From contig NC_086097.1 in the NCBI RefSeq assembly GCF_963921235.1, positions 67,396,001 through 67,460,000 of the forward strand: a stretch of DNA of 64,000 nucleotides. The letters are read 5' to 3'. The stretch is from Mobula hypostoma. Taxonomy: Eukaryota. Numbering within the stretch: the stretch's first letter is position 1; every line of letters begins with the position of its first letter. Below are positions 18,247 to 56,878 of this stretch, piece by piece. Under the pieces are notes generated by a model. It saw only the letters and a list, made by a program, of their open reading frames with translations. It did not search any database and was not told where the DNA came from. The translations under genes were made by a program, and so were the position numbers.

Positions 18247-18373
18247 ATGAAGGGTCTCGGTCTGAAACGTCGACTGTACCTCTTCCTAGAGATGCTGCCT
18301 GGCCTGCTGCGTTCACCAGCAACTTTGATGTGTGTTGCTTGAATTTCCAGCATCTGCAGAATTCCTGTTGTTT
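18247..18373 (+). mobile_element. Short Penelope-derived element, hammerhead core truncated
   Basis: Nearly identical to 22901-23031; starts inside the CUGAUGA box. Confidence 0.85.
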
Positions 18374-20012
18374 CCCACGTTAATAAAGTTTTCACGGACT
18401 ATTGGCAATCAATGTTACCATTGTGGCAAAACTGGGCATTCAACAAAAGAATGCTGGTATAAGGACTTAGACTGCTGAAGCTCTGGCAAAAAACGACATA
18501 CTGAACGCACCTGTAGAAGTAAAAAGACACTGTCAACCAAAAACAATGTAATACAGAAAAATGACTTTGAAAAATAAAAAGAAATGTTAACAAGATGGTG
18601 CATACTGAGGACGGACTCTGTGGTTGAAGAAGGTTTGCATGTTCTATCTGTTTCATGACACAATGATGGCTATTGAGTGATCTTGCAGTTGGATGGGGCC
18701 ACAGTGAGGATGCAGGTGGACAGGGGCATTGCAGTATCACTGGTGTCAGAGACAGTATACAAGGAAAAATTGCAGCATCTCACCCCAGAAGGGGCAAGAC
18801 TTTCACTGGTGAGGTTGTTTCAGTGAGGGAAGTAGCACATGTTACCGTGGAGATTAATGAACAGAGAAAGACGTTTCCACTGTACACTGTTAAAGGTGAA
18901 TATCCAATGCTTCTGGTCCGCTCATGCAGATGCATGTGGAGCCAGGGTCGCAGGAACTGTTGACCATAGTGACTCACAAAGGGATGTCCAGGTGCTGAAG
19001 GCTTCCATTTGGCATCATCTTGGCTCCTGCACTTTTTCAGTGAGCAATGAACCAGATCCTGAGCTGGTTGACAGGAGTGCAGTGTTACTTGGATGACTTG
19101 CCCATTACTGGGAAAAATGAGTGTGAGCACCTACAAAGCCTGGATGCTACACTGCAAAGACTCAAAGGAATATAGGCCAAGGGTCAGGAAGGACAAGTGT
19201 GTCCTTTCGACCTTTGATTGAATATTTAGGCTACGTGATCGACAACTCAGGACTTTACAAGGAACCATCAAAGGTGCAGGCAACCATGGGCGCTCCATCA
19301 TCATAGAATGTAAGTCAATTAAGCTCTTTCTTAGAATTACTAACATACTACACAAAGTTTGTTCCTAATCTAGCTAACATGCTGAAACCACTTCATGGGC
19401 TTTTAAATAAATCAACACACTGGTAATAGATCACTGTGAAGAGGCTTTTAAAAAGGGTCTAAGCAGCTTTGTCACAATCTGAAGCACTGACACACTTCAA
19501 CACTGTCATTGCTCACACAGTTGTCTTGTGACTCATCACCCTATGGTGTGGGGGCAGTTATTTCACACATCGACTGAAGAGCGTCCAATCGCTTTCACAT
19601 CAGGGATATTAGGCAAGGTAGGATGCCACGATGCCCAGATTGAGTGGGAAGCAATCACAATTGTCTTTGGAGTTAAGGAATTCCATCAATTCCTCTTTGG
19701 TTGATGATTTTTACAGAACTGACAGGTCATCACCCCTTGATGCCAATTTTTGGTCCGCATGTGGCTATTCCTTCCCTGGCTGCTACTTGAATGCAACATT
19801 GGGCTCTATTACTATCCACACGTCAGTACGATATAAAGCACAGGAGGTCCGAGCACCATTCGAATACTGATGGACTATCTGGCCTTCCATTAGCTGTTAC
19901 AGCTCCAGACCCATCTCTGAAAGAGATCTTTTTATTTATTTATTTATTGAGATACAGCACAGAGAAGGCCTTCCTGACCCTTCATGCTGTGCTGCCAGTA
20001 ATTCCCCGATTT

Positions 20013-23000
20013 AAAAAAAAACTTTATTTTAAAAAAAAATAATGAAATCAACAAAAACATACCAGCTCAGACATGTATAAAAAAGAAATAAGCAAAAAAA
20101 AAGATATAACATTAGAGGGATTGTACAAAGTGCTCAAAAATACTAAACATTAAATCTCAAATGAGGGCCATGAGAAATCAGCTGGGGGGGAAGTTGCTCA
20201 TCCACCCCCGGCCTCGGCCAGGTAGGCAATAAATAGATCCCAGATAGCTGAAAAATTTTAATTGAATTGGTTCTCAAGAACCTAAGTTTCTCCATCTATA
20301 TGACTGAGATCATATCAGCCATCCATCTCCGAAAGGAAGGGGGAGAGAGTGATTTCCATTTCCTCAAGATAAGTCTTTTGGCAGCAATCATCCCCAGCAT
20401 CAGAGACTGTTGTATGGCTGCAGGGAAACAAATAGTAGATTGCGAGCAGCCAAATATGGCGAGATCGGCTTCCAAGGGGAAGGATCTTTTATAGGCCTTT
20501 GAGTACCAGTCGAATATTTTTGCACCAAAATCCAGTCAGTAATGGGCAAAACCAAAAGGTGTGTGACAACATGGCTTCCATCCCTTGGCATCTATCACAC
20601 ATTGGCGAGACAGAAGGGTAAATCCTGTGCAATCTAAGTTTAGAGTAATGGAGACGGTGGACAACTTTAAAGTGGATCAGTTGGTGCCTGCTGTTAACAG
20701 AGCAAGCCTGTATCATAGACAAACACTTATCCCAGGCAGTTTCAGATAATTCAATGCCCAACTCCTCTCTCCAGGCGTCTCTAATCTTCACAGTAGACGC
20801 TACAGTGCAATTATCAAACAAATGTACAAACTTAGAAACGAGATGCCTGGAGTCAGGAGGGTTCTTTAAAATACCAAAAAAAAACATATGTTTCCCTGGA
20901 AGGATTTCAAAATTACGAATCTTTGATTGAATGTAGTGTCTAATTTGTAAATAATGAAAAAAGTGCGAATGAGGCAGCTCAAATTTCTCTTTCAGCAGAC
21001 TAAATGTTGCAAACCATCCCTCTAAGTACAGGTCTTCAGTAGAAACTAGACCCTTCTTCCTCCAAGCATGGTAGGTTTTATCTGACCATGAGGGTAGAAA
21101 GGAGTGATTGAAACAGATTGGTGTTTGTACAGAGGTCTCTGGTAAATTCAGAACGCTCCTAATCTGATTTAGAATTCTGACGAAATTTTTCAAAACAAAA
21201 CTCAAACTTTTTGAGGACCCAGGCCTCTCTAACTTAGAGAACAGCATGGCTGGCAAGGAGGAATTGACAACAGAGTTGGACTCCATACATAGCCACAAGG
21301 GAGCCCCAGGGGCTAGGTTATCCGGAGCCCCCTGTTGCCAAAACATTAAAGCCCTAGCATTGACAGCCCAATAATAGTGTCTAAATACAGGTAATCCCAG
21401 CCCTCCTTCAGATTCGGGCTTTTGTAAATGAATTTCCAAAATCGTGTGATTCTTATAATTCCAGATATAAGACGATATTATGGAGTCCAACTCTTTAAAG
21501 AAAGCTGATGTAAGAAAAATGGGGAGATTTTGGCAGAGATAGAGAAACCTAGGAAGGGAAACCATTTTAATTGAATTTATACAACCAATCATGGAGGTAG
21601 GGTTTTCCTGCTTTCTCTATTCTGTTTAAGTTTTGAAATAAACTCCGCGAAGTTTAATTTGAATATTAATTTAGGATCTTTGGGGATTGTCAAGCCGAGA
21701 TAAGTAAAGTGATCTTTAACTACTTTGAACGGGACAGTTTCCAAAAAACCCCGCGTGTAGTCGTTGGAGAGGGGCACAAAGTCACTTTTTGTCCAATTGA
21801 TTGAGTATCCCGATAGTCTGCCAAAAGAGGTGATTAAAATCTAGAAGAGGGACTGACTTTTTGAGTTTTGTAATTAGAGTATCACATCATCAGCATTTAA
21901 ACTAATAGGTGTTTCAATGCCCCCCACTTTCAAACCCAGAATATTTGGGTGACTTCTTATTTTTAAGGCAAGGGGCTCTACCGCGATGGCAAAAAGGGCC
22001 GGCGAGAGAGGGCACCCCTGCTGGACTGAACGGTGTAGGGGAACCAGAGTTGACTTGTCACCATTAGTTATAATAGAACACACTGGGCTGGCATATATCA
22101 GTTTTACCCAAGATACAGATGACTCCCTGAACCCAAACCTGTACAGTGACTCAAACATGTAAGGCCACTCAATCTGATCAAAAGCCTTTTGTGCATCAAG
22201 AGATAAAATTGCTGCCCCATTAGCTTTCCCATGATCAGCATATATAGTACTAAGGAGGCATCTGACATTGGGAAAAGAGAACCTACCCAGGACAAATCCT
22301 GTCTGATCAGGATGAATGATAGATGACAAATGCTTATTTAGTCGGTTAGCCAGCATTTTACTAATTACCTTTCTATAAAAATTCTGGAGAGCAATGGGCC
22401 TATAGCTGGCCGGGTCTGTTTCCTCTTTATCTTTCTTTAGAATGAGGGAAATGTTAGCCTTGTACAATGTCCTAGGCAAGGCTTTATCTCTCTTAGAGCA
22501 AGATATCATTCTGGGGAAAAGTGGGACAAGGATATCACAGAATTTCTTATAAAATTCACAGCCAAATCCATCCGGCCCAGCAGCCTTGCCGGACAGAAAT
22601 GACTTAATGGCAGAAGTTATTTCTTCCAATGTGAAGTCAGAATCTAAGTCCTCCCTAGCAGCGTCACTAAGTCTCGGCTCTAAGTCAGAGGCAAAGAAGT
22701 CATTCAAATCAGATTGAGTGGCATTGCATTTAGAAGTGTAGAGTTCACTGTAAAATTCTTTAAAACAGTCATTTATCTCCTTGAGGTTAGTTAACAGGGT
22801 ACCCGTCCTCGACCTAATGCAGTGGATTGACCTTAGGGCCTGGGTGCCCCTGAGCTGCCGCGCCAGGAGCCCCTCAGGCTTGTCCCCCATTTCATTCCCT
22901 CCTGATGAAGGGTCTCGGCCTGAAACGTCGACTATACCTCTTCCTAGAGATGCTGCCTGGCCTGCTGCGTTCACCAGCAACTTTGATGTGTGTTGCTTGA

Positions 23001-25690
23001 ATTTCCAGCATCTGCAGAATTCCTGTTGTTTGCCCCCATTTCAAAATGCTTTTGTCTTAATTTTAAGAGGAGATTACTTATTTGACTACCCAAGATACAA
23101 TTGTACTCGTATTTAAGCTTCATTATTTTATTATAATCTTCAGAGGATTTTGAAGCCTGGTATGTCGCTTTGAGGGTTGGGAGAGTATTCTCAATCTCTA
23201 ATAATTGCCCTTCTCTCTCCCCCTTAGCAGCGGATTCATATGAAATTATATACCAACGAATTACAACTTTTAATGTCTTCCAGAGTGTGAAATCTGACAC
23301 CTCGCCATTATCGTTAATTTCTATAAAATCTTTTAATCTGGTGGTGATATATTCTATAAATTTCTTATGGGTGAGTAAGCAGGGGTTAAAACGCCAGGAA
23401 TAGATTCGTTTGGAAAGGCAGAGATTTAGGGACATTGTGAAGGGGCTATGGTCAGAAATTACTCTATTATGATATTTTATATTGGTAACACGAGATATTA
23501 AATGAGAATCAACCAAAAAATAGTCTATTCTACTATAAGATTTGTGAACATGAGAATAATAAGAATAATCCTTGTCGGTGGGATGTTGAATTCGCCAAAT
23601 ATCTACTAAATTCCTAGATCTAATCAAATTAATTTGGACCTGCACTGACACAATATTTGAGGGCGGGCGGGAGGACAATCTATCTAAATATGGATCTAGG
23701 TAGCAATTCAAGTCACCACTGATTATTATATTTGAATTACTGGCATCCGGAAGTAAATCAAAGACTTTCCTAAAAAAAATTTGGGTCTTCTGTGTTTGGA
23801 CCATAAATATTAAGGAAGGTTAGCGGAAACGAATTAATGGTGCCAGAGATCATAATAAACCTGCCGAGAGGATCTGTGGTAATGGAAGTGAGTTGAAATG
23901 GAATATTTTTCCTAAAGAGGATAGCCACACCATGGGCATGAGAAGTAAATGGTGACTGGTAAACCTGCAATATGCAGTTAGTCCTCAATCTGCGTTGCTC
24001 AGTTACTTTGATATGGGTTTCCAGTAGAAAAATCACATCTGCAGATAGAGATTTGAGATGGCTAAAAACTTTATCCCTCTTAACAACATGACCAAGGCCC
24101 TTAACATTCCACAAGACTATTGTAATATCTTTACCCCCTAGCTGCGTTCTACCACAAGGCCTCTGCATATGAGAATAAAGAGATTATTAGAGTTGAGCAC
24201 AAACATAGTAAACAATGCAAAATAACTGGTAGCCTCATAAGAACACAACATACACAAAAAAGGCATGTCTGAGCTATAAACAAAAACACACATCCTAACC
24301 CACCCCCCTTCCTGTCTCCCTAAACCAGACACATTGTTCCCCATTTCCATCCCAAAAGGAGCTGCTGGGCAGGTAACTAACATTACACAATTATCACAAA
24401 CCCCCTCTCCGAGAAAATTTATAATACAAATTATATAATACCGTTAAACAAATGCTATTAGGGCTGGGGAGAGTTATCCAGTGTCCGCACCTGAAGCTGA
24501 ACATTCATGACATCAACTCAAATTTAACCCTTATAATAACAAAAATATTTAGAACATTCTCTGCAATTAAATCCCAGTGCGGCATACAGCATCACAAAAC
24601 TACATATAACAATCAGGTCCCTCCCCGTATCCCAACATGGAAACCGGCACAAATATAAGCTGAATAAACAGTGTCAATATATCTACTCCCTTTTTTGTGC
24701 ATTATTCCTTTCCAAGAATTGTGCTGCTTCTATCAGGTCGTCATATACTTTATGCGCTCTTCCATCTTGATGATAAATATAGAGCCTAGCCGAATATCGC
24801 AGGGTGCGCTTGATTCCTCCATCAGGCAGAGTTGGCAGTACATCACGAAAGACAGGGCTTTGAGCCATCATCTCTTTAGTATAGTCCGGGAAGATCAAGA
24901 CCTTATTTCCCTTGTACTCCATGGGTTGTAGTCTGCTGCGGTGCAGGATCAGCTCCTTCACTGGAAAGTGATGGATATGTGCCAAGATGGTGCGTGGTTT
25001 CCCGCCACCGGCAACTGGCTTCGGCTGGAGAGAGCGATGCCTGCGATCGACTTTAACCGGGTACGGGAAATGCTCTTCCCCGAGCAACTTGGGAATCAGT
25101 CTGGAAACAAATTCAGTAGGTTTACCATCCTCCTCACCCTCTTATATCCCTATAATCTTAATTTTATGTCTCTGGCAACAACCCTCTAAGTCATGCACTT
25201 TAGCTTCAAGCTGGCTATTTTGTCTCATTAGCTCTGAATACTTAACTTCAAGCTCTTGCACGGGTGTTTCAAGGTCACTGGTGGTTAGTTCTTGATTAGC
25301 CACACGGGCTTGTAAGTCAGCCTGGGAGGCCCCAAGTGCCTCAAACTTGGTCTCAGAAACACCAAAGCGGTCGTTAATGCCGTGCAGAATTGACTCAGAA
25401 ATCTCCTGACCTAATTCCTTGCACATGGCCTAAGTTTTATCGGGCGGTATCTCAGACGCGGAGAAGTGCTTTACCGACCCGTTGTTAGCACTAACTTCGG
25501 TAGTTTGGCAGTCGGCGGTCTTGGCCTTATTTGCCTTCGGCATTGTCAAACCTTTCCAGACACTTAGTTTAAACATACACTGTTGGCCTATGAATAAATA
25601 AAACAGGGTATAATAGTAATTTCGTCGAGGCCTCGGAAAGGAGCACTGACCAAACACGTCTAATCCATACGCATGTGCACTAGCGCCCCC
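20013..25690 (-). mobile_element. Full-length L1-clade LINE (ORF1 25543-24683; ORF2 24168-~20198), disrupted
   Basis: Starts GGGGGCGC; ORF1 is coiled-coil/RRM-like in one frame with two stops; ORF2 has APE (WNVKGL, GDLN, SRIDY, SDH), RT (LDAQKAFD, QGCPLSP, ADD) and a C-terminal Cys/His motif; 15-bp TSD at 19998-20012 and 25691-25705. Confidence 0.93.
22895..23032 (+). mobile_element. Short Penelope-derived hammerhead-motif element inserted in L1 ORF2
   Basis: Exact 11-bp TSD cccccatttca at 22884-22894 and 23033-23043; CTGATGA at 22902, GAAACGTC at 22922; removing it restores KHFEMGDKPEGLLARQLR. Confidence 0.9.
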
Positions 25691-25924
25691 GCAATTCCCC
25701 AATTTAACCCTAGCCTAATCACGGGACAATTTACAATGACTAATTAATGTTTCAACTGGTATGCTGTGGACTGTGGGAGGAAACCGGAGCACTCAGAGGA
25801 AACCCACATGGTCAGGGGGAGAACGTACAAACTCCTTACAGACAGCGCGGGAATTGAACGCTGGTCACCTGTACTGTAAAGCCTCGTGCTAATCACTAAT
25901 CACTGTGCTGCCCATTTTACTTCA

Positions 25925-26934
25925 TAATCATAGTCGTACTTTATTGATCCTAGGGGAAATTAGTTTTCATTACAGTTGCACCATAAATAATAAATAGTAA
26001 TAGAACCATAAATAGTTAAATAGTAAGATGTAAATTATGCCAGTAAATTATGAAATAAGTCCAGGACCAGCCTATTGGCTCAGTGTGTCTGACCCTCCAA
26101 GGGAGGAGTTGTAAAGTTTGATGGCCACAGGCAGGAATGACTTCCTATGACGCTCTGTGCTGCATCTCGGTGGAATGAGTCTCTGGCTGAATGTACTCCT
26201 GTGCCCACCCAGTACATTATGTAGTGGATGGGAGACATTGACCAAGATAGCATGCAACTTAGACAGCATCCTCTTTTCAGACACCACCGTGAGAGAGTCC
26301 AGTTCCATCCCCACAACATCACTGGCCTTACGAATGAGTTTGTTGATTCTGTTGGTGTCTGCTACCCTCAGCCTGCTGCCCCAGCACACAACAACAAACA
26401 TGATAGCACTGGCCACCACAGGCTTGTAGAACATCCTCAGCATCATCCAGCAGATGTTAAAGGACCTCAGGAAATAGAGACGGCTCTGACCCTTCTTGTA
26501 GACAGCCTCAGTGTTCTTAGACCAGTCCAGTTTATTGTCAATTCGTACCCCAGGTATTTGTAATCCTCCACCATGTCCACACTGACCCCCTGGATGGAAA
26601 CAGGGGTCACCAGTACCTTCGCTCTCCTCAGGTCTACCACCAGCTCCTTAGTCTTTTTCACATTAAGCTGTAGATAATTCTGCTCACACCATGTGACAAA
26701 GTTTCCTACCGTCGCCCTGTACTCAACCGCATCTCCCTTGCTGATGCATCCAACTATGGCAGAGTCATCCGAAAACTTCTGAAGATGACAAGACTCTGTG
26801 CAGTAGTTGAAGTCCGAGGTGTAAATGGTGAAGAGGAAGGGAGACAAGACAGTCCCCTGTGGAGCCCCAGTGCTGCTGATCACTCTGTCAGACACACAGT
26901 GTTGCAAGCACACGTACTGTGGTCTGCCAGAAGG
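25925..26934 (-). mobile_element. Rex1 LINE 3' fragment
   Basis: GAPQGTVLSPFLFTIYTSD..FSDDSA motif; 7-bp TSD tacttca at 25918-25924 and 26935-26941. Confidence 0.92.
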
Positions 26935-29464: not shown

Positions 29465-30825
29465 TCTGAGGAACCAGATTTATTTGCACTTGGAAAACAA
29501 GGACTGATTAGAGATTTTTAGCATGGCTTTGTTTGTGGGAGAGCATGTCTCACAAGTTTGATTGAGTTTCTTCAGGAAGTGAACAAGAGTATCAATGAGG
29601 GTAGGTCAGTTAATGTTGTCTTATTGGACTTTAGCAAGGCTCTTAGCAAGGTCCACATGGGTAGGCTAGTCCAGAAGGTTAGAATAATGGGGCATCATGG
29701 TTGTGTAATGGTCAGCACAATGCTATTACAGTTTGGGGTGTCAGAGTTCGAAGTTCAATTCCAGCATCCTCTGTAAGAAAGTTTGTACTTTCTACCCATG
29801 AGCATGTGGGATTCCTCCAGGTCCTCCCATTCCCTCTCACAGTCCAAAGATGTACCGGTTAATAGGTTAATTGGTCAATGTAAATTGTTCTGTGATTAGG
29901 TTAGGGTTAAATAGGAGGGTTGATGAGTGGTGCAGCTTGTTGGGCCAGAAGGGCATGTTCCGCACTGTATCTCTAAATAAAAATAAACAACTGCGTGGGT
30001 TGAAGGTGAGGTAGGTAGGAGATGTAGCATGGTAGTGGAGGGTAGATTTTCAGAGTGGTATTGGGTCCTTTATTGTTCATTATATACCACAATTATTTAA
30101 AAGACAAAGTTGTTGGCATGATTAGTAAGTTTGTACCAAAATTAATGTTATAGTGGACTGTATCAAAGGTCACTGAGAATGTGGGCAAGGGAATACTGAG
30201 GGAATATAATTCAGACAAATGTAAGATGATGCGTTTTGGAAAGTTAAACCAGGCCAGGACATGCACAGTGTCCTGAGAAGTATTATTGGAAAATAAGACC
30301 TTAGGGTATAAATACAATACCCTGAGAGTAAAAACAGGGGTATTTAGTATGCTATGACTATAGGAGTTGGGACTTTATATTACAATTGTATAAATTGTTG
30401 GTTAGGCAGCCCTTGCAATTCTGGAAGGTGATATTCGATAGGCTGGAACTACTTTCTGTGCGGTGAAAGGAGCTGAGGGGTGACCTTGGGGAGGTTTTGT
30501 AAAATTATGAAGGGAATACATGGAGTAGATAATCAGGGTTATTTTCCTCGGTCAAGAGAATTAAGACACAAGAGGGCACAAGTTTAAGCTGAAAGGGGAG
30601 AAATCTAAATGAGATCAGAGGTTTTTCATTCAGAGGGTAGTGGTTCCATAAAATGAACTTCCATCATCACAGGGGCATGAATATACAATTACAATGTTTA
30701 AAAGGCATTTGGAAAGGTCGTTGATAGGAAAGGCATAGAGACACAGGCCTAATGCAAGCAAATGGGATGGGCATCACAGTTGGCATGGACAAGTTGTTTC
30801 TGTGCTGAATCTATGAATCTCTAAG
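29465..30825 (+). mobile_element. Old degraded CR1 RT fragment
   Basis: HGFV.GRACLT and LDFSKAL motifs, CR1 3' region, tctatgaatct tail. Confidence 0.8.
29688..29988 (+). mobile_element. V-SINE inserted in CR1
   Basis: A-box-like tggttgtgtaatgg, B-box gttcaattcc, V-domain and A-rich tail. Confidence 0.85.
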
Positions 30826-31437
30826 AATTCAAGTAGACTTGATTAAGCATAGCATACTCTATCTATCCATGTCTTCACTCTCAGGAAACTGCATTTATAC
30901 CGCAAGGTCTTATTTCCAATAATACTTTCACACTGTGTTGTGAAAGTTTATAACTGCTTCAGTTTGTATAGAATAACTGAAAACCTGCTGATTCTTGACC
31001 TTTATGTATACTAACTTGCTTGACAACCATATACATTCTCTCCATTTGAAGATCATTAGACAGCGAGCAAGTTTCATCATTCTCCCTTATCGAGGTGCAC
31101 AAAATCACTTTGAAGTTTGAGTTGAACCTAACAGTCTACATAGATAATATTTGCTGTGCTTCAAACTGTGTTTCTTACTTGTTCATTATTTATAGGGTAC
31201 AAAATTGACTGGCCCCACAAATGCATTTGGGCATTACCATAAACATTTACTCCACCCCAATCGACCTGAATCAGCAGCTCATCACACTAGCTTTGTGCTG
31301 TCTGCTCATTCATGTACCCAGCATGTTATTTATTGGCATATTGGTTGAACAGGGTGCCTAATTTCGTGAATATTTAGCACCAGATAAAGACACCTCCTGT
31401 TATTTAAAGACAGGTTAGATCTTGTCAAGACTCATAC

Positions 31438-32364: not shown

Positions 32365-33075
32365 ACTTTGTACAAGCTGGTAGGTGATAGGTGAGACCAA
32401 GTGAGGGGGAAGGTGGGAAGGTGGGTGAGTGGGTGGGTGGTGGAGGGAGATGAAGTAAGAAGTTGGGAAGTGTTAGGTGGGAGAGTAGAATTGAACTGGG
32501 TAGCCACCAGGAGATCCTGCCTTCATCTGTCTGCTGCAAAAGGCAGGACCTCCTGGTGGACACCTATTTCAATTTGCCCTCCCACTCCCATCCTGACATG
32601 TCTGTCCATGCTGTCCTCTACTGTGATGATGAGGCCAATCTCTTGTTAGAGGATCAACATTTCATATTCTGTCTTAGTTGCCTCCACCCTGATGCAATGA
32701 ACATTGATTTCTCCAATTTCTAGTAATCTTTCCCCCCCTTCCTTCTCTCATTTTATATTCCCCATTATAGCTACCCTCTCACCCCTCACTTCTCTTTAGC
32801 TCCCCATCACCTCCCTCTGTTTCCTCTCCTCCATTCCTTTCTTCTATGGTCCACTGTCCTCTCCTATCTGATTCCTTCAGTTCTCTATCTCCTCCACCCA
32901 TCCTGTCCCCTCTTCCCTTCTTATTCTGGCTTCTGCCTCCTTCCTTTCCAGTCATGATAAAGGGCCCAGAATGTTGACTGTTTATTCCATTGATGCTGCC
33001 TGACCTGCTCAGTTTCTCCAGCATTTCAGTGTGTGTTGTTCAATAATTCAAGTATCTGCAGAACCTCTTGTGTTC
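32365..33075 (+). mobile_element. Penelope-like 3' portion with an inverted 5' segment
   Basis: LEDQHFIFCLSCLHPDAMNIDFSNF (GIY-YIG C-terminus), CT-rich UTR, degenerate hammerhead near 32950; 32365-32510 is an inverted UTR piece. Confidence 0.8.
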
Positions 33076-35405: not shown

Positions 35406-35832
35406 TCTCCATTTCACAACTACTATATTCTTTAGTCTATGCTCTCACTCTCCACGTGCTTCCATTCACTCACTAACCAAATAATCTCATTTACAATTTA
35501 TTCCTTTGGTCACCATCGCACCCTAGTTTTACCCTGTAATGGATATTCCTGGCCTAGCCTATCGTCCCTGGAGCTTCTTTTCTCTACTTCCCACTTCTGA
35601 TGGGGATTTTACCTGAAATATTAATTGTTTCTCTACCCCCAGATGCAGCCTGATCAGCTGAGAATATTCAGCATTTACAGTTTTAAAAAAAGATTTATTA
35701 ACTGCTGTTTGGTGTGTGGGAGTTTCAGTTGTAAGCTCTACTTAATTTATCAGTCTTACAATCCACAAATTCCCATGTCAGAGCTTGTACTAACTACCAG
35801 ACATTTCAATGTGATGGGTGTATGGCTCAAAG

Positions 35833-36289
35833 TACGGGGGGGTGATTGATAACTTCATGGCCTAAGGTAGAAAGAGTCAATTTTAGAAAACCTAGCACAG
35901 TTATTTTTCAACATACTCCCCTCCTACATGTACACACTTAGTCTAGTAGTCATGGAGCATACAGATCCCTTCTTTGTAGAAGTGGTCCACAGCAGGGGTG
36001 ATTGATAAGTTTGTGGCCTAAGGCAGAAGGAGATGAGTTATACAGCTCAGTAATGCAGAAATTTTGAAGTTAATAACTCATCTCCTTCTACTTTAGGCCA
36101 CGAACTTATCAATCACCCCTGCTGTGGACCACTTCTGGAGGTCCAAGACGCTGACTTCTACAAAGAAGAGATCTGTATGCTGCACGACCGCTGGACTAAG
36201 TGTATAAATGTAGGGAAAATAAATGTGCTAGGATTCTTAAAATTGGCTCCTTCTACCTTAGGCCACGAGCTTATCAAACACCCCTCGTA
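35833..36289. mobile_element. Palindromic mariner-derived MITE
   Basis: TA flanks; TIR tacg(a/g)ggggtg.ttgataa..tc.tggcctaaggtagaa; arms encode the mariner C-terminus DFYKEEICMLHDRWTKCINV; second inverted pair at ~35992-36122. Confidence 0.88.
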
Positions 36290-41130: not shown

Positions 41131-41149
41131 TTTAATTTATAAAAATGTT

Positions 41150-42556
41150 CTCCTTTTTTCAAAGGTTGTGGTTTCCCTTCCACCACCATTAATGCTGCCT
41201 TCACCTGCATCTCCTCCATTTCCCATAACTTTGCCCTCACCCCATCCTCCTGCTGCCATAATGGGGAGAGAATTCCCTTTGTCCTTACCCACCACCCCAT
41301 GAGCCTCTATATACAACAGATCATTCTCTGTAAGTTCCACCATCTTCAATGGTATCCTACGACCAAACACATCCTTCCCTCCCCCTCACTCTCTACTTTC
41401 CACAGGCATCATTCTCTACGTGACTCTCCTGTCCATTTGTGCTTCCCCACTGATCTATCTCCTGGCACTTATCCCTGCAAACGTGACAAGTGCTAAATCT
41501 TCCTCCCTCACCACCATTCAGAGCCCCAAATTCTTCTCGGTGAGGTGACACTTCATCTGCAGGCCTGTCAGTTTTATCTATTGTACTTGGTGTTCCTGGT
41601 GTGGCCTCTTCTACATCAGTGAGACCTGATGTGCATTGGGGAATTGTTTTGTCGTGCACCTTCACTCCATCTGTCGCAAAAGGTGGGATTTTAATTTGAC
41701 TTCCCATTCCAATATGTCAGTTCATGGCTGACTCTACTGCCATGAAAAGGCACAGTCACCTTGGAGGAGCAACACCTCATATTCCATCTGAGTAGCCTCC
41801 AAGAGCACAAACATCAATTTCTCTAACTTATGGTAATTTCTCCCCACTACCGTTTATGTCTTTTTTCCATTTCCCATCTGGTTCACCTCTTACCCTTTTT
41901 TTATGCCCATCATCATTCTCTGGTACCCCTCCACTTTCTCTTTCTTCTATTGTCCATTCTTCTCTCCTATCAGATTCCATCTCTTTCAGCCCTTCACCTC
42001 TTCCATCTATCTCCTCCCAGCTTCTTACTTTATCCCCCTCCCCTATCTACCCACCTTCAGCCTCACCTGGTTTCACTTATCACTTGCCAGCTTGTACTTT
42101 TTCTGCTGCCTCCCCATTCTTTTTAAAAAAAATAGTTATTTAGAGATACAGTGCAGAATGGGCCTTTTCAGCTAAACATGCCGTGCCACCCAACAACCCA
42201 ACTATTTAAACCTCGCCTAATCACAGTACAATTTACAAGGACCAATTAACCTACTAACCGGTGTGTTTTTGGACTGTGGGAGGAAACCAGAGCGCTCAAA
42301 AGAAACCAACAGAGTCACAGGGAGAACATGCAAACTCCTTATAGATGGCGCTGGAATTGAACTCAGAACTCCAACGCTCCAAGCTATAATAATGTCATGC
42401 TAACCATGCTACTGTAATACCTATGTTCTTCTCTGTCTCCATTCCTGATGAAGCTTCAATTATTATTCCTCTCCATAGATGAAGCCTGACTTGCTGAGTT
42501 CCTCTAGAACTTTGTGTTCCTCGAAATTCCAGCACTTGCAGAATCTCTTGTGTTTA
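41150..42556 (+). mobile_element. Penelope-like element 3' part (GIY-YIG + pLTR), split by a V-SINE
   Basis: IYCTWCSWCGLFYISET motif, CT-rich UTR, cctgatgaag at 42444 and the terminal segment shared with other PLE copies. Confidence 0.82.
42135..42418 (-). mobile_element. V-SINE
   Basis: B-box gttcaattcc and V-domain; collinear with the other copies. Confidence 0.88.
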
Positions 42557-44169: not shown

Positions 44170-44705
44170 TAAAAGAGATTATAGATGCTGAAAAAAACAA
44201 AAGTATTGGAAGAACTCAGTGGGTAAAGCAGCATCTGGCAAAAGATGCCTATTGATGTTTCAGGTCAGGATCTGGCATCAGGGCTGAGAGGCAAGACAAA
44301 ATATTGCCAGTATATAATAGTAGAAAACTACAGCGGGACAGAGGCTGTAGGTCATAGGTGGAACTAGATGGAAAGGGGAGTTTGGGCAGATGGAACTAGG
44401 TGAGGGAGAAAGAAGGGGTGCAGGGATGGGAAAAATGAACAAAGGAAGAAGAAAATGACATGAAGAAGTGAGTGTGTGTGGGTGAAGAACACCAGGGGTG
44501 TGGGTTATGTAAAATTGGAAAATTCAGTCTTCATATCATTGGGTTGTAAACTACTTAAGTGGAATAGGAGATATTTGTTGCTTCAGTTAGCATTTGTTCA
44601 CTTAATAGCAATGAAGAAGGCTGAGGACAGAGAGATCAGTCAGGGAATAGGAAGGACAGTTAAAATGACATGCAACTGGAAGCTTGAGATGGCTGTTGCA
44701 GATAG
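44170..44705 (-). mobile_element. Degraded Penelope-like 3' end
   Basis: Reverse complement resembles the PLE terminus and GIY-YIG C-terminus (compare 54965-55480). Confidence 0.7.
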
Positions 44706-45369
44706 TGTGGGCGTTAATTATCGAACAGCTTTGCCTTTTTTCATTTATATTAAGTTAAGTGAGACTGGTCTAACTTAACCCTTGCCAATTTAGCAGGCAA
44801 ATCTTGAAATGTTAACAGAGAATATTTTTCTCTACTCTGATAAGAGACACCAATAATGGGCCATTGATGAAAAGGATTATTTTTGTGCTCAAGTCAGTGG
44901 TGCAGGTTTGTCACGATGAATAAGGAAATTTTGTTCTTAGACTTAGCCTCCCAATTGGATATAGAAACGCAATGTTTTAATTTTTTTTGTTAATGGTCAT
45001 AATTCTTACGCTACCTAATCATCATCACCAGTGTAAACTATGTTTGTTTGATGGATTATAAACTTTATTATTATATACGGCAGAATATATAGGTTTGGAT
45101 AAGAAAAGGCAGGAGTGGGCTCAAGAAAAGCATAAGTACTAGCATGGACAAGTTGGGAGGGATGTCTTGTTAATGTACATGTTGCAAAGACACAGAGTTA
45201 ATGAATTAGCTACTATATATTATCCACAGTGCAGATTAGTATATGTGAGAAAATAGGTTAGAGGGAAATAAGTGGAGGAATGAGACTGATAGGAATACTC
45301 TGAAAGCTAGTGTAGATTTGATCAGAAAAATTACCTCCTGCAACTGTATGTTGAAAAAGAAACATGACA

Positions 45370-48300: not shown

Positions 48301-48622
48301 GGATAGTCAGAGGCTTTTTCCCCAGGGTGGAAATGGCTAGCATGAGAGGGCACAGTTTTAAGGTGCTTGGAAGGAGGTACAGAGGAGATATCAGGAATAA
48401 GTTTTTCACATAGAGAGTGGTGAGAGTGTGGAATGGGCTGCCAGTGACACTGGTAGAGGCAGATACGATAGGGTCTTTTAAGAGACTCCTGGACAGGTAT
48501 ATGGAGCTCAGGAAAATAGAGGGCTATGGGTAACCTTGGGTAATTTCTCAGGTAAAGACATGTTTGGCACAGCTTTGTGGGTCGAAAGGTCTGTATTGTG
48601 CTGTAGGTTTTCTATGTTTCTA
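45370..48622 (+). mobile_element. CR1 LINE (end of ORF1 SGNH + frameshifted ORF2)
   Basis: DGLHLNPRG; APE 45803-46843; RT 47025-47876; ttctatgtttcta tail. Confidence 0.95.
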
Positions 48623-49120
48623 GTTTAGCAACCATTTTTCAGATTTTTAATTCAATGTCTTCATGTTTTAACAACACAATTGCAAACTAGTTACCTACAT
48701 TGAGAATAATATTCAATTTATTGAGACTAGATCACCTCTGGGTTACAGACAGGTTGAATTTTTTTTCAGATTCCCATAAGTCAAATTTGTTCATGAGTTG
48801 GAAAATATGTCTCTAGGTATGTAAAAAATCAAATGATATGGGAATCATGCCTCCACTGTACTGAGGTAGATGCAACTGGTTGTAGAGATGCAGCTGAAGT
48901 CTACATAGGAAACTGCTATTTATAGGAAGAAACGTGTGAATGAAAGTCAGACTTTTGAATTCAAATGCGCTCATTTCTATCTATAGGATATATATAAGTC
49001 AGACATTCGTAAACAGGGGATGACCTGTACTTAGTGGATCAAAACTGTGGCATGCTTTCAAAATCAAAATAGCAAGTGCTTATGTTTTCGGTCATGAAAT
49101 GAGCTAATTCCCATGCTTAC

Positions 49121-49147
49121 CTCAGAGGTTTTATTTTAGAAGCATTT
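49121..49147 (-). CDS. Candidate 27-nt exon (NASKIKPL), phase 2-2
   Basis: Acceptor ttctgtttctttttccaaag, strong donor GAG|gtaagc; only phase 2 is free of stops. Confidence 0.45.
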
Positions 49148-49294
49148 CTTTGGAAAAAGAAACAGAATGGATGCAGTGGCTAGAAACTTGTACTGTCATG
49201 CCACTCTATGAATTTCATTGCATTTTCACAACCTACTATGTTTGGCTCAACATATTTGCTGATCATTATGTTTGAAAATAAATAATCTACTCCG

Positions 49295-50775
49295 GACACT
49301 ACAGCACAGAAACAGGCTATTCAGCCCATCTGGTTGGTGCCAAACTATTAACCATTGACCTGCACAGGGACCATAGCCCTCCATACCTCTCCCATCCACG
49401 TACCTATCCAAATTTCTCTTAAGTGTTGAAATCAACCCCACATCTACCACTTGCACTGGTAGCTCATTCCACATTTTTACCAACCACTGAGTGAAGAAGT
49501 TCCCCCTCATGTTCCCATTAAACAATTCACTTTTCACCCTTAAGCCATGACTTAATTGTAGTCTCATCCAATATCAGTACAAAAAGCCAGCTTGCATTTA
49601 CCCTATCTATAGCCCTCAAAATTTGTATACCTCTATCAAATCTCCTCTTAATCTTCGTTGTTCTAGGGAATAAAACCCTAACCTATTCAACCTCTCGCTA
49701 TAACCCAGGTCCTCAAGTCTCGCAACATCTTTGTAAATTTTCTCTGCACTCTTTCTATCTTACTTACATCTTTCCTGTAGTAGGTGACCAAAACTGAATA
49801 CAGTTCTTTAAATTAGGCCTCACCAATGTCTTACACAATTACAACATAACATCCTATCTCATGTACTCAATGCATTGCTTTATGATGGCCAATGTGCCAA
49901 AAGCTTTCTTGATGACCCTACCTACCTGTCACACTACTTTCAAGGAATTATGTACCTGCATTCCCAGATCTCTCTGTTCTACTACACTCCTCAATGATTA
50001 TGATTATGAAGACATGTAGTCCTCTTTTATTGTCATTTAGTAATGCATGCATTAAGAAATGATACATTATTTCCTCCGGTGTGATATCACAAACCACAGG
50101 ACAAACCAAGACTGAAAAAACTGACAAAACCACATAATTATAACGTATAGTTACAGTGTAACAACACCATAACTTGATGAAGAAGTCCGTGAACACAGTA
50201 AAGTTCAAAGTTTCTCAAATGTCCCACATCTCACGCAGACGGGAGAAGGAAGAAAAACTCTCCCTGCCATGCTGACCACAATCCAACTCTGAGTCATCCG
50301 AAAACTTCGAGCTCTGATCAGCTCTCTGACACCGAGTACTGAGCGCCATCTCTGTCCGAATGATTCGACCTCCTTCTCGGTCGCCAAAAGCAGGCAAGCC
50401 CGGGGATTTTGAGGCCTACCCTCTGAAAGATTCATGACCACACAGTAACGACAGCAGCAAACGGGCGTTTCAGAAATTTCTCCAGATGTTCCTCTGTGCT
50501 TTCACGTCCATTCTCCATCAAATCAGAATTGTCCACAGCCCCTATTTAACAGATACGATATCATACTGCTCACGAGTAAGACATGGTTTGTCCTCCCAAA
50601 GTACAACATCTCACACTTGTCTGCATTAAGTTCCACCTGCCATTTTTCCTGGTGCTCTAGATTCCGTTGCAAGCTTTGATTTTCTTCCTTGCTCTTTACC
50701 ACACCCCCAATCTTGGTGTCATCCACACATTTGCCAATCCAGTTTACCACATTATCATCCAGATCATTGATATGG
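49295..50775 (-). mobile_element. CR1 3' fragment interrupted by an unclassified insert
   Basis: INDLDDNVVNWIGKCVDDTKIGG (50523-50780) and C-terminal ORF 49247-49567. Confidence 0.88.
49995..50562 (-). mobile_element. Unclassified short retroelement with (ATAATC)n tail
   Basis: Interrupts the CR1; minus-strand AATAAA followed by a tandem hexamer tail; CpG-rich body with no recognised protein. Confidence 0.55.
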
Positions 50776-52051
50776 ATCAATGGTTCTTAAAGGGGGCCAT
50801 GTCAGATTTTGTAGGGGCCACAAGTAAAAAGCAAAAACCTCGGGTCACAGGTTTCTCAATGGAACATGATCAGTTGACTGTTTTAATGTACCTCAGAAGA
50901 GGTGGTTTTAGTGATGTTTTTAGTCAAATTTCCTCTCTTTTTAACTACCAGTGAACTGTCACATGTATTTGGTAGTGCCATCCTAACTGGAAGAGTTAAT
51001 GTTTTGGAGATACTTTGCAGAAAATTCATATGACCAGGGAGGAGATATTTGTAGGCTTACAGCGCAAAGAACATAGAACACTACAACATAATACAGATCT
51101 TCCGGACCACGATGTTGCGCAAACCCTTTAATTTACTCTACAAGCAGTCTCATCTTTCTCCTACATTCTGCAAACTGTCAATGTCCTGTTGTAACCTACA
51201 ACAGCCTTCTACACTACCCACAACATACCAACATTCATTTCTTCTGCAAACTGACTAACCCACCCTTCCACTTCCTAGTCCTAGTCTTCTATAGAAATCA
51301 AAAAGAGCAGTATTCGCAGAATAGACCCCTGTGGAACCCCATCTTCACCGGCCTCCAGGTAGAATATGTTCCATCTACTACTATCCTCTGACTTCCGTGT
51401 GCAAGTCAATTCTGAATCCACACAGCCACGCGACCCTGCCTTTCTGAATTAATTTACCATGGAGAACCTTGTCAAAAATGTCCTGCTAGAATCTATACTC
51501 ACCACATCCACTGCTTTGTCTTCATCAATTTGTTTTGTCATTTTCTCAAAGAATTCATTCAGGCTCGTGACGCACAACCTGCCCCTTACAAAACCATGAT
51601 GATGATCCCTAATCAAACCGTGTTTCTCCAAATGCTTTTAATTCCTGTCTCTATGAATCCTCTCCAATAGTTTTCCCACCATTTATGTAAGACTCTCTGG
51701 CGTATAATTCCAAGTGTAATCCCTGTTATCTTTCTTGAACAAAGGAATACTGTTTGCTAACCTTCAATCCTTTGGTTCTACTCCTATGGCCAGTGAGGAT
51801 GCAAAGATCATCACCAAAGGTGCAGTAATTTCTTTCCTCAGTTCCTGTAGTTTACTGCATATCCTGTCTGACCCTGGGGATTTTCTATCTTAACGTTTTT
51901 CCAAAGTTCCAACACATCCGCTTAACACTGATATGTTCCAGCATATCAGCCTGTTTTACACTGTCCTCTCATTCATCAAAGTCTCTCTCACTGGTGAATA
52001 CTGAAGCAAAATATTTATTAAGGACCTCCCTTACTTCCTCTGACTCAAGGC

Positions 52052-54162
52052 CCATAGAACCATAGAACCATAGAAACTACAGCACAGAAACAGGCCCTTT
52101 GGCCCTTCTTGGCTGTGTCGAACCATTTTCTGCCTAGTCCCACTGACTTGCACACGGACCATTATCCCTCCATACACCTCCCATCCATGTATCTGTCCAA
52201 TTTATTCTTAAATGTTAAAAAAGAACCCGCATTTACCACCTCGTCTGGCAGCTCATTCCATACTCCCACCACTCTCTGTGTGAAGAAGCCCCCGTTAATG
52301 TTCCCTTTAAACTTTTCCCCGCTCACCCTTAACCCATGTCCTCTGGTTTTTTTCTCCCCTTGCCTCAGTGGAAAAAGCCTGCTTGCATTCACTCTATCTA
52401 TACCCATCATAATTTTATATACCTCTATCAAATCTCCCCTCATTCTTCTATGCTCCAGGGAATAAAGTCCTAACCTATTCAACCTTTCTCTGTAACTGAG
52501 TTTCTCAAGTCCCAGCAACATCCTTGTAAACCTTCTCTGCACTCTTTCAACCTTATTTATATCCTTCCTGTAAGCTGGTGACCAAAACTGAACACAATAC
52601 TCCAGATTCGGCCTCACCAATGCCTTATACAACCTCATCATAACATTCCAGCTCTTACACTCAATACTTTGATTAATAAAGGCCAATGTACCAAAAGCTC
52701 TCTTTACGACCCTATCTACCTGTGACGCCACTTTTAGGGAATTTTGTATCTGTATTCCCAGATCCCTCTGTTCCACTGCACTCCTCAGTGCCTTACCATT
52801 AACCCTGTATGTTCTACGTTGGTTTGTCCTTCCAACGTGCAATACCTCACACTTGTCAGTATTAAACTCCATCTGCCATTTTTCAGCCCATTTTTCCAGC
52901 TGGTCCAAGTCCCTCTGCAGGCTCTGAAAACCTTCCTCACTGTCTACTACACCTTCAATCTTTGTATCATCAGCAAACTTGCTGATCCAATTTACCACAT
53001 TATCATCCAGATCATTGATATAGATGACAAATAACAATGGACCCAGCACTGATCCCTGTGGCACACCACTAGTCACAAGCCTCCACTCAGAGAAGCAATT
53101 CTCTACCACCACTCTCTGGCTTCTTCCATCGAGCCAATGTCTAATCCAATTTACCACCTCTCCATGTATACCTAGCGACTGAATTTACCTAACTAACCTC
53201 CCATGCGGGACCTTGTCAAAGGCCTTACTGAAGTCCATGTAGACAATATCCACTGCCTTCCCTTCATCCACTTTCCTGGTAACCTCCTCAAAAAACTCCA
53301 ACAGATTGGTCAAACATGACCTACCACGCACAAAGCCATGTTGACTCTCCCTAATAAGCCCCTGTCTATCCAAATGCTTGTAGATTCTGTCTCTTAGTAC
53401 TCCCTCCAATAACTTACCTACTACCGACGTTAAACTCACCGGCCTATAATTTCCTGGATTACTTTTCGATCCTTTTTTAAACAACGGAACAACATGAACC
53501 ACTCCAATCCTCCGGCACTTCACCCGTAGACAGCGACATTTTAAATATTTCTGCCAGGGCCCCCGCAATTTCAACACTAGTCTCCTTCAAGGTCCGAGGG
53601 AACACTCTGTCAGGTCCCGGGGATTTATCCACTTTAATTTTCCTCAAGACAGCAAGCACCTCCTCCTTTTCAATCTGTACAGTTTCCATGGTCTCACTAC
53701 TTGATTCCCTCAATTCCATAGATTTCATGCCAGCTTCCTTAGTAAATACAGACACAAAAAACCTATTTAAGATCTCCCCCATTTCCTTTGATTTCGCACA
53801 AAGCCGACCACTCTGATCTTCAAGAGGACCAATTTTATCCCTTACAATCCTTTTGCTCTTAATATACTTGTAAAAGCTCTTTGGATTATCCTTCACTTTG
53901 ACTGCCAAGGCAACCTCATGTCTTCTTTTTGCCCTCCTGATTTCTTTCTTAAGTATTTTCTTGCACTTCTTATACTCCTCAAGCACCTGATTTACCCCCT
54001 GTTTCCTATACATTTCATACAACTCCCTCTTCTTCTTTATCAGAGTTGCAATATCCCTTGAGAACCAAGGTTCCTTATTCCTATTCAATTTGCCTTTAAT
54101 CCTGACAGGAATATACAAACTCAGCACTCTCAAAATTTCCCCTTTGAAGGCTTCCCACCTAC
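52052..54162 (-). mobile_element. Young 5'-truncated CR1
   Basis: Long clean RT ORFs 52162-53157, 53185-53577 and most of 53477-54274; (CCATAGAA)3 tail on the plus strand. Confidence 0.95.
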
Positions 54163-54964
54163 CAAAAGAGTTTCCTCTTTTATCCCTAATGGATCCTAGC
54201 CTCAGTCTAGTCATCTTCCTGATCTTTACATATGTGTGGAATGCCTTGGGATTTTCCTGAATTCTGCTTACCAAGGCCTTCTCATGTCATCTTTCAGCTC
54301 TCCTAAGTCCATTCTTAAACTCCTGGCTACCTTGTAATTCTCTAGAGCCCAGTCTGATCCTTGTTTACTAAACTGTAAGTATGCTTCTTTCTTCCTCTTG
54401 ACTAGATAGTCTACATCTCATCAAACATGGTTCCTTCACCCTGCTGCCTCGATGAGAGAAACCTATTCAGAACCCCTTATAACTGCTTCTTAAACAACCT
54501 CCTTATTTCCCTGAGTACATCCATTCCCAATTTACTCTCCCAAGTTCCTGCCAAATAGCATTAATATTTCCCCTATCCCAGTTAAATACTTTCCTATACC
54601 ATCTGCTCCCATCCCTGCCAAGGCTATGGTAAAGATCAGGGTCTTGTGGTCACTGTCTCTCAAATGCCTCACTCACTAAGAGATCTCTCACCTGACCAGG
54701 GTTATTACTGAGCACCAGATCCAGTATGGTCTTTCCTCTAGTCGGCCTATTTGCATATTGTGTCAGGAATCCTTCGTAGACTAACCCAACAAATTTTTCC
54801 TCATTCAAACCTTTTGTACTAAAGAGGTGCCAGCCAATATTAGGGAAGTTGCAGTCACCCATCATAACAATCCTGTTATTTTTGCACCTTTCCGCTCTGC
54901 ATCTCAATGTTTACAGTGTTATTGGGTGGGGAAGGCAGTGTCTATAGAATGCTCTCAATAGAGT

Positions 54965-56448
54965 CACAAACAAGAGAAAATCTGCAGATGCTGGAAATCC
55001 AAGCAACACACACACAATACTGGAGGAACTTAGCAGGCCAGGCAGCATCTTGGAAAAGAGTACTGTCAATGTTTCAGGCTGAAACCCTTCAGCAGGACCA
55101 GAGAAAAAAGCTAGGGAGTAGATTTAAAAGATGGGGGGAGGGGAGGGAGAAACACAGGGTGATAGGTGAAATCTAAAGGGGGAGGGATAAAGTAAAGAGC
55201 TGGGAAGTTGATTGGTGAGAGAGACAGAAGGCCATGGGATAAGAAATGGTGATGGATGGGTGGGGAGCATTACCGGAAGTTTGAGAAATTAATGTTCACG
55301 CCATTAAGTTGGAGGCTACCCAAACGGAATGTAAGATGTTGTTCCTCCAACCTAAGTGTGGCCTCCTCACGACAGTGGAGGAGGCCATGAATGGACATAT
55401 CGGAATGGGAATGGGAAGTGGAATTAAAATGGGTGGCCACTAGGAGATCGCGCTTGTTCAGGCAGATGGACCGTAGATGCCTCCACGTCCAGCACATCTA
55501 CTCTTAACCAATCCTCCCACCACCCTACCAGGGGTAGAGTTCCTCTTGTCCTCACCTACCACCCCACCAGTCTCCATATCCAGCACATAATTCTCTAAAA
55601 CATCCACGAATTCCAACTAGATCCCACCACCAAGCATATCTTTCCCTCACCCCCCCGCCCCCCGCTTTCTGCTTTCTGCAGGGATCACTCCCTACGTGAC
55701 TCCCTTGTCCATTGATCTCCCTCCTTTCCCACATCCTTGCAAGCGGAACAAGTGCTACACCTCCCTCATTATCATTCAGGGCCCTAAACACTCCTTCCAG
55801 GTGAGGCAACAATTCACCTGTGAGTCTGTTGGGGTCATATACTGTGCTTGGTGCTCCCAGTGTGGCCTCCTGTATATCGGTGAGACCTGACATAGATTGG
55901 GAGACAAAGCACCTACGCTCCATCTGCCAGAACAAGCGCGATCTCCCAGTGGCCATCCATTCCCATTTCTGATATGTCCGTCCATAGCCTCCTCCATTGT
56001 CATGATGAAGGCACACTTAGGTTGGTGGAACAACACCTTACATTCCATCTGGGTAGCCGCCAACCTGATGACATGAACATTCATTTCTCAAATTTCCAGT
56101 AATGCCCCCCACCTCCTGTCTTTTACCATTTCTCATGGCCTTTTCCCTCCCTCATCTTATCTCCTTGCCCGCCCATCGTCTCCCCTGGTGCTCCTCCACC
56201 CCCCCCTTTTCTTTCTCCCAAGGCCTTCTGTCTCTTTCATCAATCAACTTCCCAGCTCTTTACTTCATCTTCCCCCTCCAGGTTTATCTACCACCTTGTG
56301 TTTCTTCTTCCCTCCCCCCAACTTTTAAATCTACCCCCTAGCTTTCTTCTCCAGTCCTGCCAAATGGTTTCAGCCTGAAACGTCGACTGTACTCTTTTCC
56401 TAGATGCTGCCTGGCCTGCTGAGTTCCTCCAGCATTTTGTGTGTGTTA
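54965..56448 (+). mobile_element. Penelope-like element with inverted 5' copy of its 3' end
   Basis: 54965-~55480 is a reverse copy of the 3' region; GIY-YIG TCESVGVIYCAWCSQCGLLYIGET; 13-bp TSD ct(c/g)tcaatagagt at 54952-54964 and 56449-56461. Confidence 0.9.
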
Positions 56449-56749
56449 CTGTCAATAGAGTGGTTGCTCCCTTGCTGTTTCTGACTCCCCCCCACACTGA
56501 CTCAGTACATTTCTCCACAACGTCATCCCTTTCTATAGTTGGGTGCTATCTCTGATTTGCAATGCCACTCCCCCACCTCTTTTATCTCCTCCCTTCCCTT
56601 TTGTCACATCTAAACCCTGTTTAGACAGTCAAGTCTCTGTAATAGCTACAACTATGCAGTTCATGTACCAACCCATGTTTTAAATTTATTGTCCTTGTTC
56701 CTGATACTTCTCACATTAAACCCAACCAAATGACTGCAATTATACCCTT

Positions 56750-56878
56750 CCTTCTCTTACTATCTCTTCTTTCAGTTAGTCCTGATGAAGGGTCTCGGCC
56801 AGAAACGTCGACTGTACCTCTTCCTAAAGATGCTGCCTGGCCTGCTGCGTTCACCAGCAACTTTTATGTGTGTTGCTT
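56750..56878 (+). mobile_element. Short PLE-derived element
   Basis: Nearly identical to 22901-22998. Confidence 0.85.
56777..56814 (+). ncRNA. Predicted minimal type-I hammerhead ribozyme
   Basis: Stem I UAGUC/GACUG, core CUGAUGA at 56782-56788, short stem II (GG..CC), GAAAC-GUC cleavage triplet at 56807-56809, self-complementary ACGU stem III. Confidence 0.7.

Follow-up and report, generated by a model that had tools for sequence, protein, structure and literature searches.

The stretch analysed here, hereafter the window, comprises 64,000 nucleotides of the ray Mobula hypostoma (RefSeq assembly GCF_963921235.1, contig NC_086097.1, positions 67,396,001 to 67,460,000 of the forward strand) and contains three short repeats bearing a hammerhead ribozyme motif, together with older pieces of Penelope-like elements (PLE), the retroelements to which, as argued below, the short repeats belong. 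The repeats had been recognized in an earlier reading of the letters without database searches (the sequence-only reading), and they were confirmed as near-identical copies at the places it gave, with the following refined ends and parts:

18248-18371 (+), young PLE 3' end copy, with tail; it starts inside the hammerhead core, with C3-U4-G5 and stem I's 5' arm missing
22895-23032 (+), young PLE 3' end copy, with tail; core intact, stem I of 2 pairs, stem II opening with G-U
56753-56878 (+), young PLE 3' end copy, without tail; its start lies 29 bases before C3, in the PLE 3' untranslated region (UTR)
56777-56814 (+), minimal type-I hammerhead motif of the preceding copy: stem I pairs 56777-81 to 56810-14 and stem II pairs 56790-92 to 56799-801 (its first pair, G-A, is broken); the core occupies 56782-88, the unpaired A 56789, GAAA 56802-05 and the palindromic ACGT 56805-08; the cut is predicted after 56809
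22999-23032 (+), optional tail of 33-34 bp, present in the copies starting at 18248, 22895, 54965, 32470 and 41141 and absent from those starting at 56753 and 55481

The young copies measured 124-138 bp. Identity between the 18247 and 22905 copies was 97.7% over 130 bp, and 96% over 94-99 bp with respect to the third one; in the 93 bases common to all three, pairwise differences amounted to 2, 4 and 4. BLAST of each young copy against the window returned the same seven places, namely the three young copies (96-98%) and four older ones (70-82%), the latter being the diverged relatives already named in the sequence-only reading. The three constitute the youngest PLE subfamily in the window. The 5' edge of the 56753 copy was backed by a jump in contig depth and by loose contig ends at 56753. 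Five bases of the 22895 copy (22895-22899) are unassigned. No tandem copies were found in the window by BLAST, and Tandem Repeats Finder detected no array in which two or more consecutive units hold a complete hammerhead; all copies were solitary.

Profile searches added two very old relatives (44197-44282 on the minus strand and approximately 35596-35676) to the four older places, so that nine PLE pieces of uneven length are present in the window, five of them reaching back into the protein frame. The older pieces are:

55481-56451 (+), older 5'-truncated PLE, without tail: end of the open reading frame (ORF; linker and GIY-YIG remnants 55729-56123), 3' UTR and decayed hammerhead at about 56353-56391
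54965-55480 (-), 5'-truncated and tailed, lying inverted next to its partner, the 55481 copy (BLAST, profile search)
32470-33071 (+), old 3' portion of a PLE from another subfamily, comprising a GIY-YIG remnant, UTR, a decayed hammerhead (about 32949-32981) and the tail, plus a short inverted segment (32478-32574)
41141-42555 (+), old 3' portion of a PLE into which a short repeat (about 42136-42407) is inserted; its hammerhead, near 42444, has suffered a partial deletion
44197-44754 (-), very old PLE 3' piece from the GIY-YIG remnant to the 3' end, absent from the sequence-only reading
35575-35676 (+), very old short PLE 3' end relic with uncertain 5' boundary (nhmmer E 0.015 and 0.00035)

The open stretch 55729-55887 matched both candidates retrieved from the protein collection, at 75% (Mobula hypostoma) and 77% (Hypanus sabinus). 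The Mobula homologue, P0001, displayed the end of a reverse transcriptase (RT), then a linker of the form CX4CxxC and a GIY-YIG domain, the latter scoring slightly below the curated cut-off (E 0.00046), and by tblastn it mapped to 55488-56123, 41143-41919 and 32478-32720 and, on the minus strand, to 55135-55482 and 44451-44754. These five P0001-matching pieces end in the same 100-130 bases as the short copies. RT followed by a CX2-5CxxC linker and GIY-YIG is the order of Neptune and Nematis PLE according to the available part of PMC8557442, and Neptune and Poseidon are the only PLE of vertebrates in the accessible portion of Li et al. 2026 (10.64898/2026.07.22.740005). The parent is, judging from its predicted domains, a Neptune-type PLE; this domain order was found for the older subfamilies, the young one having no ORF in the window.

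The pieces at 54965-55480 and 55481-56451 form one insertion of two truncated back-to-back copies, bounded by a 10-bp duplication (54955-54964 and 56452-56461). For the 32470 piece no target duplication was found, and a 9-bp duplication around 41141-42555 was left unused, as it lies 10 bases off the 3' end.

Two different 3' ends were displayed by the young copies, at +69 and at +100 to +103 from the predicted cut, and both classes were also found within the single inverted insertion 54965-56451, in which only one arm carries the tail. In contigs, the tail-less 3' ends piled up sharply at 56875-56878, next to unrelated flanks. An optional tail of 30-40 bp, and an inverted partner with the tail at one end, are known from PLE (PMC8557442, available part; PMC11167929), and the tail has been traced to two internal RT start sites (Frangieh et al. 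2024, PMC11167929). The ray copies thus resemble the truncated PLE insertions described in these two sources in the spacing of their 3' classes (33-34 bp apart) and in the inverted partner tailed at one end, and also in the hammerhead lying shortly upstream of the 3' ends and in being copies that run through an uncut ribozyme.

The sequence-only reading had ascribed a perfect target-site duplication to one copy, and the 22895 copy is indeed flanked by an exact 11-bp repeat (22884-22894 and 23033-23043), repeats of at least 10 bp being found in 0 of 2000 random position pairs. This copy splits an L1-type RT frame, the halves of which rejoin in frame at the 11-bp duplication:

21874-23819 (-), L1-type endonuclease/RT frame, target of the 22895 insertion and not a family member (RVT_1 E 3.5e-25; endonuclease below the curated cut-off)

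Given the exact duplication and the split frame, 22895-23032 is a true insertion. The interrupted L1-type element extends over 20489-25141 (-) with long open frames (ORF1-like at 24683-25141, endonuclease, RT and 3' part). The 18248 copy presented a candidate 6-bp duplication (18242-18247 and 18372-18377) which overlaps both element ends (chance about 2.4%), and the 56753 copy a possible 5-bp one (56751-56755 and 56876-56880) overlapping the element's own ends (chance about 9%). The targets of the three young copies were not AT-rich, and at all three junctions some bases were common to element and target. At 22890-22899, the last five bases of the 11-bp duplication match the family at 56770-56774 in exact register and are followed by five differing bases and then by the core; the end of the complementary DNA (cDNA) may have annealed there to the target, although the match is possibly due to chance.

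For comparison with related genomes, assembled contigs of 4 of 24 listed public runs were aligned to 56660-56959 at 88% likeness; statements on loose ends cover 24 of 637 rows, and the counts of run X1 are minimum values ("at least"). The matching contigs of the two DNA-type runs numbered 59,503 out of 27.6 million and 42,626 out of 22.2 million, and the summed contig depth, which is not equivalent to copy number, reached 7-12 million inside the unit vs. mostly <30 in the flanks. Thousands of contigs also matched in two runs guessed to be RNA, where the presence of a contig does not amount to transcription. Two metagenome scans gave 0 matches, and the only match of a viral-contig scan, 19 bases in a phage-type contig, was taken as chance.

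Loose ends before 56753 shared one consensus in all 4 runs (290, 200, 36, and 32 contigs, at least in the case of run X1). This consensus agreed in register with the PLE UTR of both older copies at 15 of 22 bases each, as compared to 5 of 22 for the true flank, a score of 15/22 or better being reached at 21 positions of about 128,000. Since the shared consensus matches the UTR of the older copies in register, the unit continues upstream as PLE 3' UTR in other copies. A search with a 15-base upstream motif was uninformative (5 matches vs. 2.9 expected, the best one in L1 coding sequence).

In run X5, two contigs (25 and 32) include both flanks of the 56753 insertion, differing at 8 of 225 bases, and enter the unit by 29 and 22 letters, below the 31-letter rule. 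This gives only a hint that the insertion may be common to a second organism and so not very recent. The recent activity proposed in the sequence-only reading holds, then, in a relative sense: no PLE subfamily in the window is younger than that of the copies, but the 56753 insertion is apparently, on the strength of that hint, also found in another organism.

Taken together, the homology to PLE ends, the two 3' classes, the uneven 5' ends, the duplications and the continuation into UTR elsewhere lead us to regard the units of about 130 bp as dead, 5'-truncated 3' end (pseudo-long terminal repeat, pseudo-LTR) insertions of a hugely amplified Neptune-type PLE of a ray, with a probability of roughly 0.85. 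Their production by PLE machinery, as retro-insertions, is supported.

The sequence-only reading had instead suggested a separate non-autonomous, retrozyme-like family. According to such an explanation, a short pseudo-LTR master RNA, retrozyme- or SINE-like (short interspersed element), would be moved in trans by the protein of the PLE, giving rise to copies of about 130 bp. The uniform size (all three young copies at 124-138 bp) and near identity would suit it, and so would the origin of retrozymes from PLE pseudo-LTRs, recorded also in one chondrichthyan in the accessible portion of 10.64898/2026.07.22.740005, and the non-autonomous PLE derivatives of Chlamydomonas mentioned in the available part of PMC8557442. 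A few head-to-tail joints were also present in contigs (56877 back to 56753, and 56806 back to 56767), and short contigs can miss array junctions; these joints had depths of 7-80 among those listed (21 further joint rows existing), in contrast with millions for the unit. Moreover, the copies are solitary, none being tandem in the window, they carry the PLE tail, their 5' ends, all upstream of the cut, fall at three places instead of a common one, and the sequence upstream of them in other copies is PLE UTR. By analogy with the anole PLE, a solitary copy ending at the RT start site would probably lack the binding signal. We therefore consider a separate family very unlikely.

Opposite-strand joints across the hammerhead were observed as well (56779/56821 in run X18 and 56787/56819 in runs X5 and X15), one of them, in a presumed RNA run, at a depth of 1673; they represent either inverted two-armed copies or a library artefact.

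Several observations on the 5' side weigh against an interpretation as ordinary truncated PLE copies. Relative to C3, the young 5' ends lie at -29, -2/-7 and +4, all upstream of the cut, so that the three young copies start within about 35 bases at the upstream edge of the ribozyme. Among the nine PLE ends in the window four lie at this edge, the fourth probably being that of the 35596 relic, and none lies downstream. After a rough edge correction, 0.5-0.66 of the depth over the ribozyme was left 20-29 bases upstream, a drop which other subfamilies explain in part, not demonstrably in full. Finally, the young parent was seen only as about 30 bases of low-complexity loose-end consensus, with no long young copy in the window, and this contig evidence comes from 24 of 637 loose-end rows, with minimum counts in run X1 and depths that do not equal copy numbers.

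A modification compatible with truncated PLE insertions is conceivable, in which truncation is not smooth: if the RT tends to stop, or the cDNA to anneal to the target, just past the hammerhead, in the pyrimidine-rich stretch ahead of it, a size class of about 130 bp would arise with no separate family. The four of nine ends at the upstream edge of the ribozyme, with none downstream, fit such a stop, as do a 5'-side depth falling faster than the edge effect explains (ratios 0.49-0.75) and the bases shared with the target at all three young junctions. Nine pieces are few and five of them are long, and the largest 5'-side loose-end peak, at 56778 (295, 277, 79, and 48 contigs), was rejected as a pile-up of 5' ends because it matches 32930-32949 (17 of 20 bases, the best in the window). 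This peak mainly reflects the other subfamily, that of the 32470 piece, its low agreement (0.36-0.45) leaving room for a mixture; no other single 5' position stood out in the rows covered. The preferred stop, with an excess of 5' ends over the 30 bases ahead of the ribozyme, is put forward tentatively, as a possibility. A bolder version, in which the hammerhead is the preferred RT stop, a large share of insertions forms a ribozyme-headed class of about 130 bp, and a few tandem ones may be founders of self-propagating retrozymes, seems to us rather unlikely.

The hammerhead motif reads as claimed in the sequence-only reading, with the predicted cut between 56809 and 56810, and it corresponds to the minimal type-I hammerhead of PLE pseudo-LTRs, in a layout as in the available part of PMC4209133. 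The core (CUGANGA ... GAAA ... UH) is complete in two of the three young copies (22902 and 56782) and truncated in the 18248 copy. The loopless palindromic ACGT and the bulged A between positions 9 and 10.1 were confirmed in all three, none of which has a helix III. Stem II has 3 pairs only, and stem I has 5 pairs in the 56753 copy and 2 in the other two young copies, whose 5' arm is truncated. As stated in the sequence-only reading, the 56777 motif keeps stem I, with 5 pairs, and all core bases; in stem II, though, an A at 11.1 breaks the G10.1-C11.1 pair. In fact, this pair was not found in any of the three copies of the window (G-U, G-U, and G-A). This A is a lesion private to the 56777 copy, since position 11.1 in the family was C in 45-48% of the depth, T in 51-54% and another base in about 1% (two DNA-type runs). 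No young copy is predicted to be an intact ribozyme, and solitary damaged copies should not cut.

Within the family, the hammerhead core varied by only 5-13%, typical of CpG decay (contigs), and larger variation was restricted to tolerated positions, namely N7, where C makes up 70%, and 11.1, where C and T occur and each can pair with G10.1. As variation beyond CpG decay sits at these tolerated positions, there is a weak sign that the source elements may have kept the hammerhead fold under selection. No match to the Rfam hammerhead families was obtained at E up to 1 in the window or up to 10 in 56740-56890, as expected for a motif lacking helix III, and the motif pattern alone gave 4 matches vs. 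a shuffled mean of 1.1, only 2 of these 4 being in the family. With a motif barely above chance and no Rfam match, it is the repeat family that carries the case. Neither the 3' part nor the motif folded better than shuffles (z from -1.1 to +1.3), and a stem-loop at the RT start sites was unsupported. Paired cells represented 81% in six aligned copies; none of the pairs of stems I and II had changed on both sides in these 6 copies, which afford little power, and no paired variants at 2% or more appeared in the 4 contig runs.

It could be argued that the copies record the action of the ribozyme, the template being cut by the hammerhead, or circularised after the cut, and the unit length being set in this way. 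A conserved core, the 5-pair stem I and the palindromic ACGT would fit a dimer-type ribozyme, and so would the confinement of variation beyond CpG decay to N7 and 11.1. A cut template, though, would start at 56810, and the copies reach 24-57 bases further upstream. No loose ends at 56810 were found among the 24 of 637 rows, nor was any place of many starts listed, and the depth rose across the cut 1.06-1.08-fold, no more than in neighbouring bins (two DNA-type runs). The hammerhead is not the lowest-energy fold in either monomer or dimer (-3.9 vs. -7.3 kcal/mol in the monomer), the six copies hold no compensatory change, and in PMC11167929 cleavage was unneeded and no reads ended at the cut site. 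We deem this explanation extremely improbable.

Three of the five copies keeping this stretch (56753-56779, 56337-56355, and 32932-32951) have, immediately ahead of the hammerhead core, a run of pyrimidines terminated by AG, which resembles a splice acceptor. The Penelope intron of Drosophila virilis is reported to terminate at helix I's 5' end (PMC4209133, available part).

If the short units are truncated insertions of the Neptune-type PLE, in vitro work on the anole element suggests, by analogy, how they may have formed. The GIY-YIG nuclease of the element would nick the target, and the RT would start at one of two fixed internal RNA sites, 33-34 bases apart, yielding tail-less or tailed copies. 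The template would be an uncut multi-copy transcript, whose uncut hammerhead is copied through by the RT; for the anole element, the uncut RNA is the insertion substrate, cleavage is dispensable in vitro and no reads end at the cut site (PMC11167929). Synthesis might then stop after 125-140 bases, and the cDNA would be joined to the target, in many cases where a few bases match, leaving a duplication of 5-11 bp. The ribozyme would belong to the autonomous parent, where helix III could fold only between two copies. Since the anole PLE RNA must extend beyond the first RT start site (to +172, the first site being at +111 to +118; PMC11167929), solitary copies ending at the start site are probably devoid of the binding signal and, by the same analogy, would be unable to move again. 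The anole element belongs to the Poseidon clade, whereas that of the ray has a Neptune/Nematis linker. Further differences from the published truncated insertions concern the targets of the three young copies, which lack AT-richness, and the start sites, where a stable stem-loop found no support.

Most minimal hammerheads are single copies "probably related to truncated PLEs" according to Cervera and De la Pena (2014, PMC4209133, available part, as for the other comparisons with this source). The ray motif resembles those of metazoan PLE, including fish Neptune, Poseidon and Xena, in the core CUGANGA plus GAAA and the unpaired base between 9 and 10.1, as well as in the loopless palindromic 15.2-16.2, the stem I of 4-5 pairs and the thousands of mostly single truncated-PLE copies. 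It differs from the Schistosoma consensus, with a stem II of 7-8 pairs, in having 3 pairs and, in about half of the family, U at 11.1. The numbers of the ray family look far higher than those published for minimal hammerheads, and rays are not named in that part of the source.

With animal non-LTR retrozymes the ray copies share a short, non-coding sequence, a type-I hammerhead, an origin from PLE pseudo-LTRs and target duplications of more than 4 bp (PMC7229834 and 10.64898/2026.07.22.740005, available parts). According to the same parts of these sources, retrozymes consist of tandem units of 150-450 bp, each with a complete, mostly canonical ribozyme, and have circular RNA, in contrast with the solitary ray copies of 124-138 bp with three 5' ends, two 3' ends and a minimal, damaged motif. 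The definition of a retrozyme fails here because the ray copies are not tandem units with a complete ribozyme each. No description of the ray family was found in the literature, the comparison not extending to Repbase, Dfam and the chondrichthyan retrozyme lists of Li et al. 2026, which might include it. The kind of minimal hammerhead, the single truncated copies and the link to retrozymes are already known in print, and the ray family is an addition to them.

Other repeats were also present in the window. A second short dispersed repeat occurred at 564-705, 25696-25915, 29708-29987 (-) and 42136-42407 with 72-83% identity, one copy lying inside the 41141 PLE; we take it to resemble V-SINE, and no tRNA was found in it by ARAGORN. 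Two 3' end pieces of a long interspersed element (LINE), at 7193-8031 and 25928-26768 (-), were 94% identical over 850 bp; no LINE pair in the window is younger. At 35862-36285 and 1427-1727 lies a repeat that contains inverted segments, its two arms matching 1427-1627 in opposite directions.

The family accounts for a large repeat fraction of the ray genome. With regard to the part played in vivo by the PLE hammerhead, so abundant a family makes it possible to count 5' junctions near the cut precisely: their excess at the cut would indicate that cleavage shapes the insertions, an excess just upstream would point to a structural stop, and neither would mean that the ribozyme leaves no trace in the copies. 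Should the hammerhead be the preferred stop from which a few tandem founders emerge, this genome would offer much more natural material than any published dataset for mapping PLE RT ends with respect to the ribozyme, and for following the birth of retrozymes from pseudo-LTRs.

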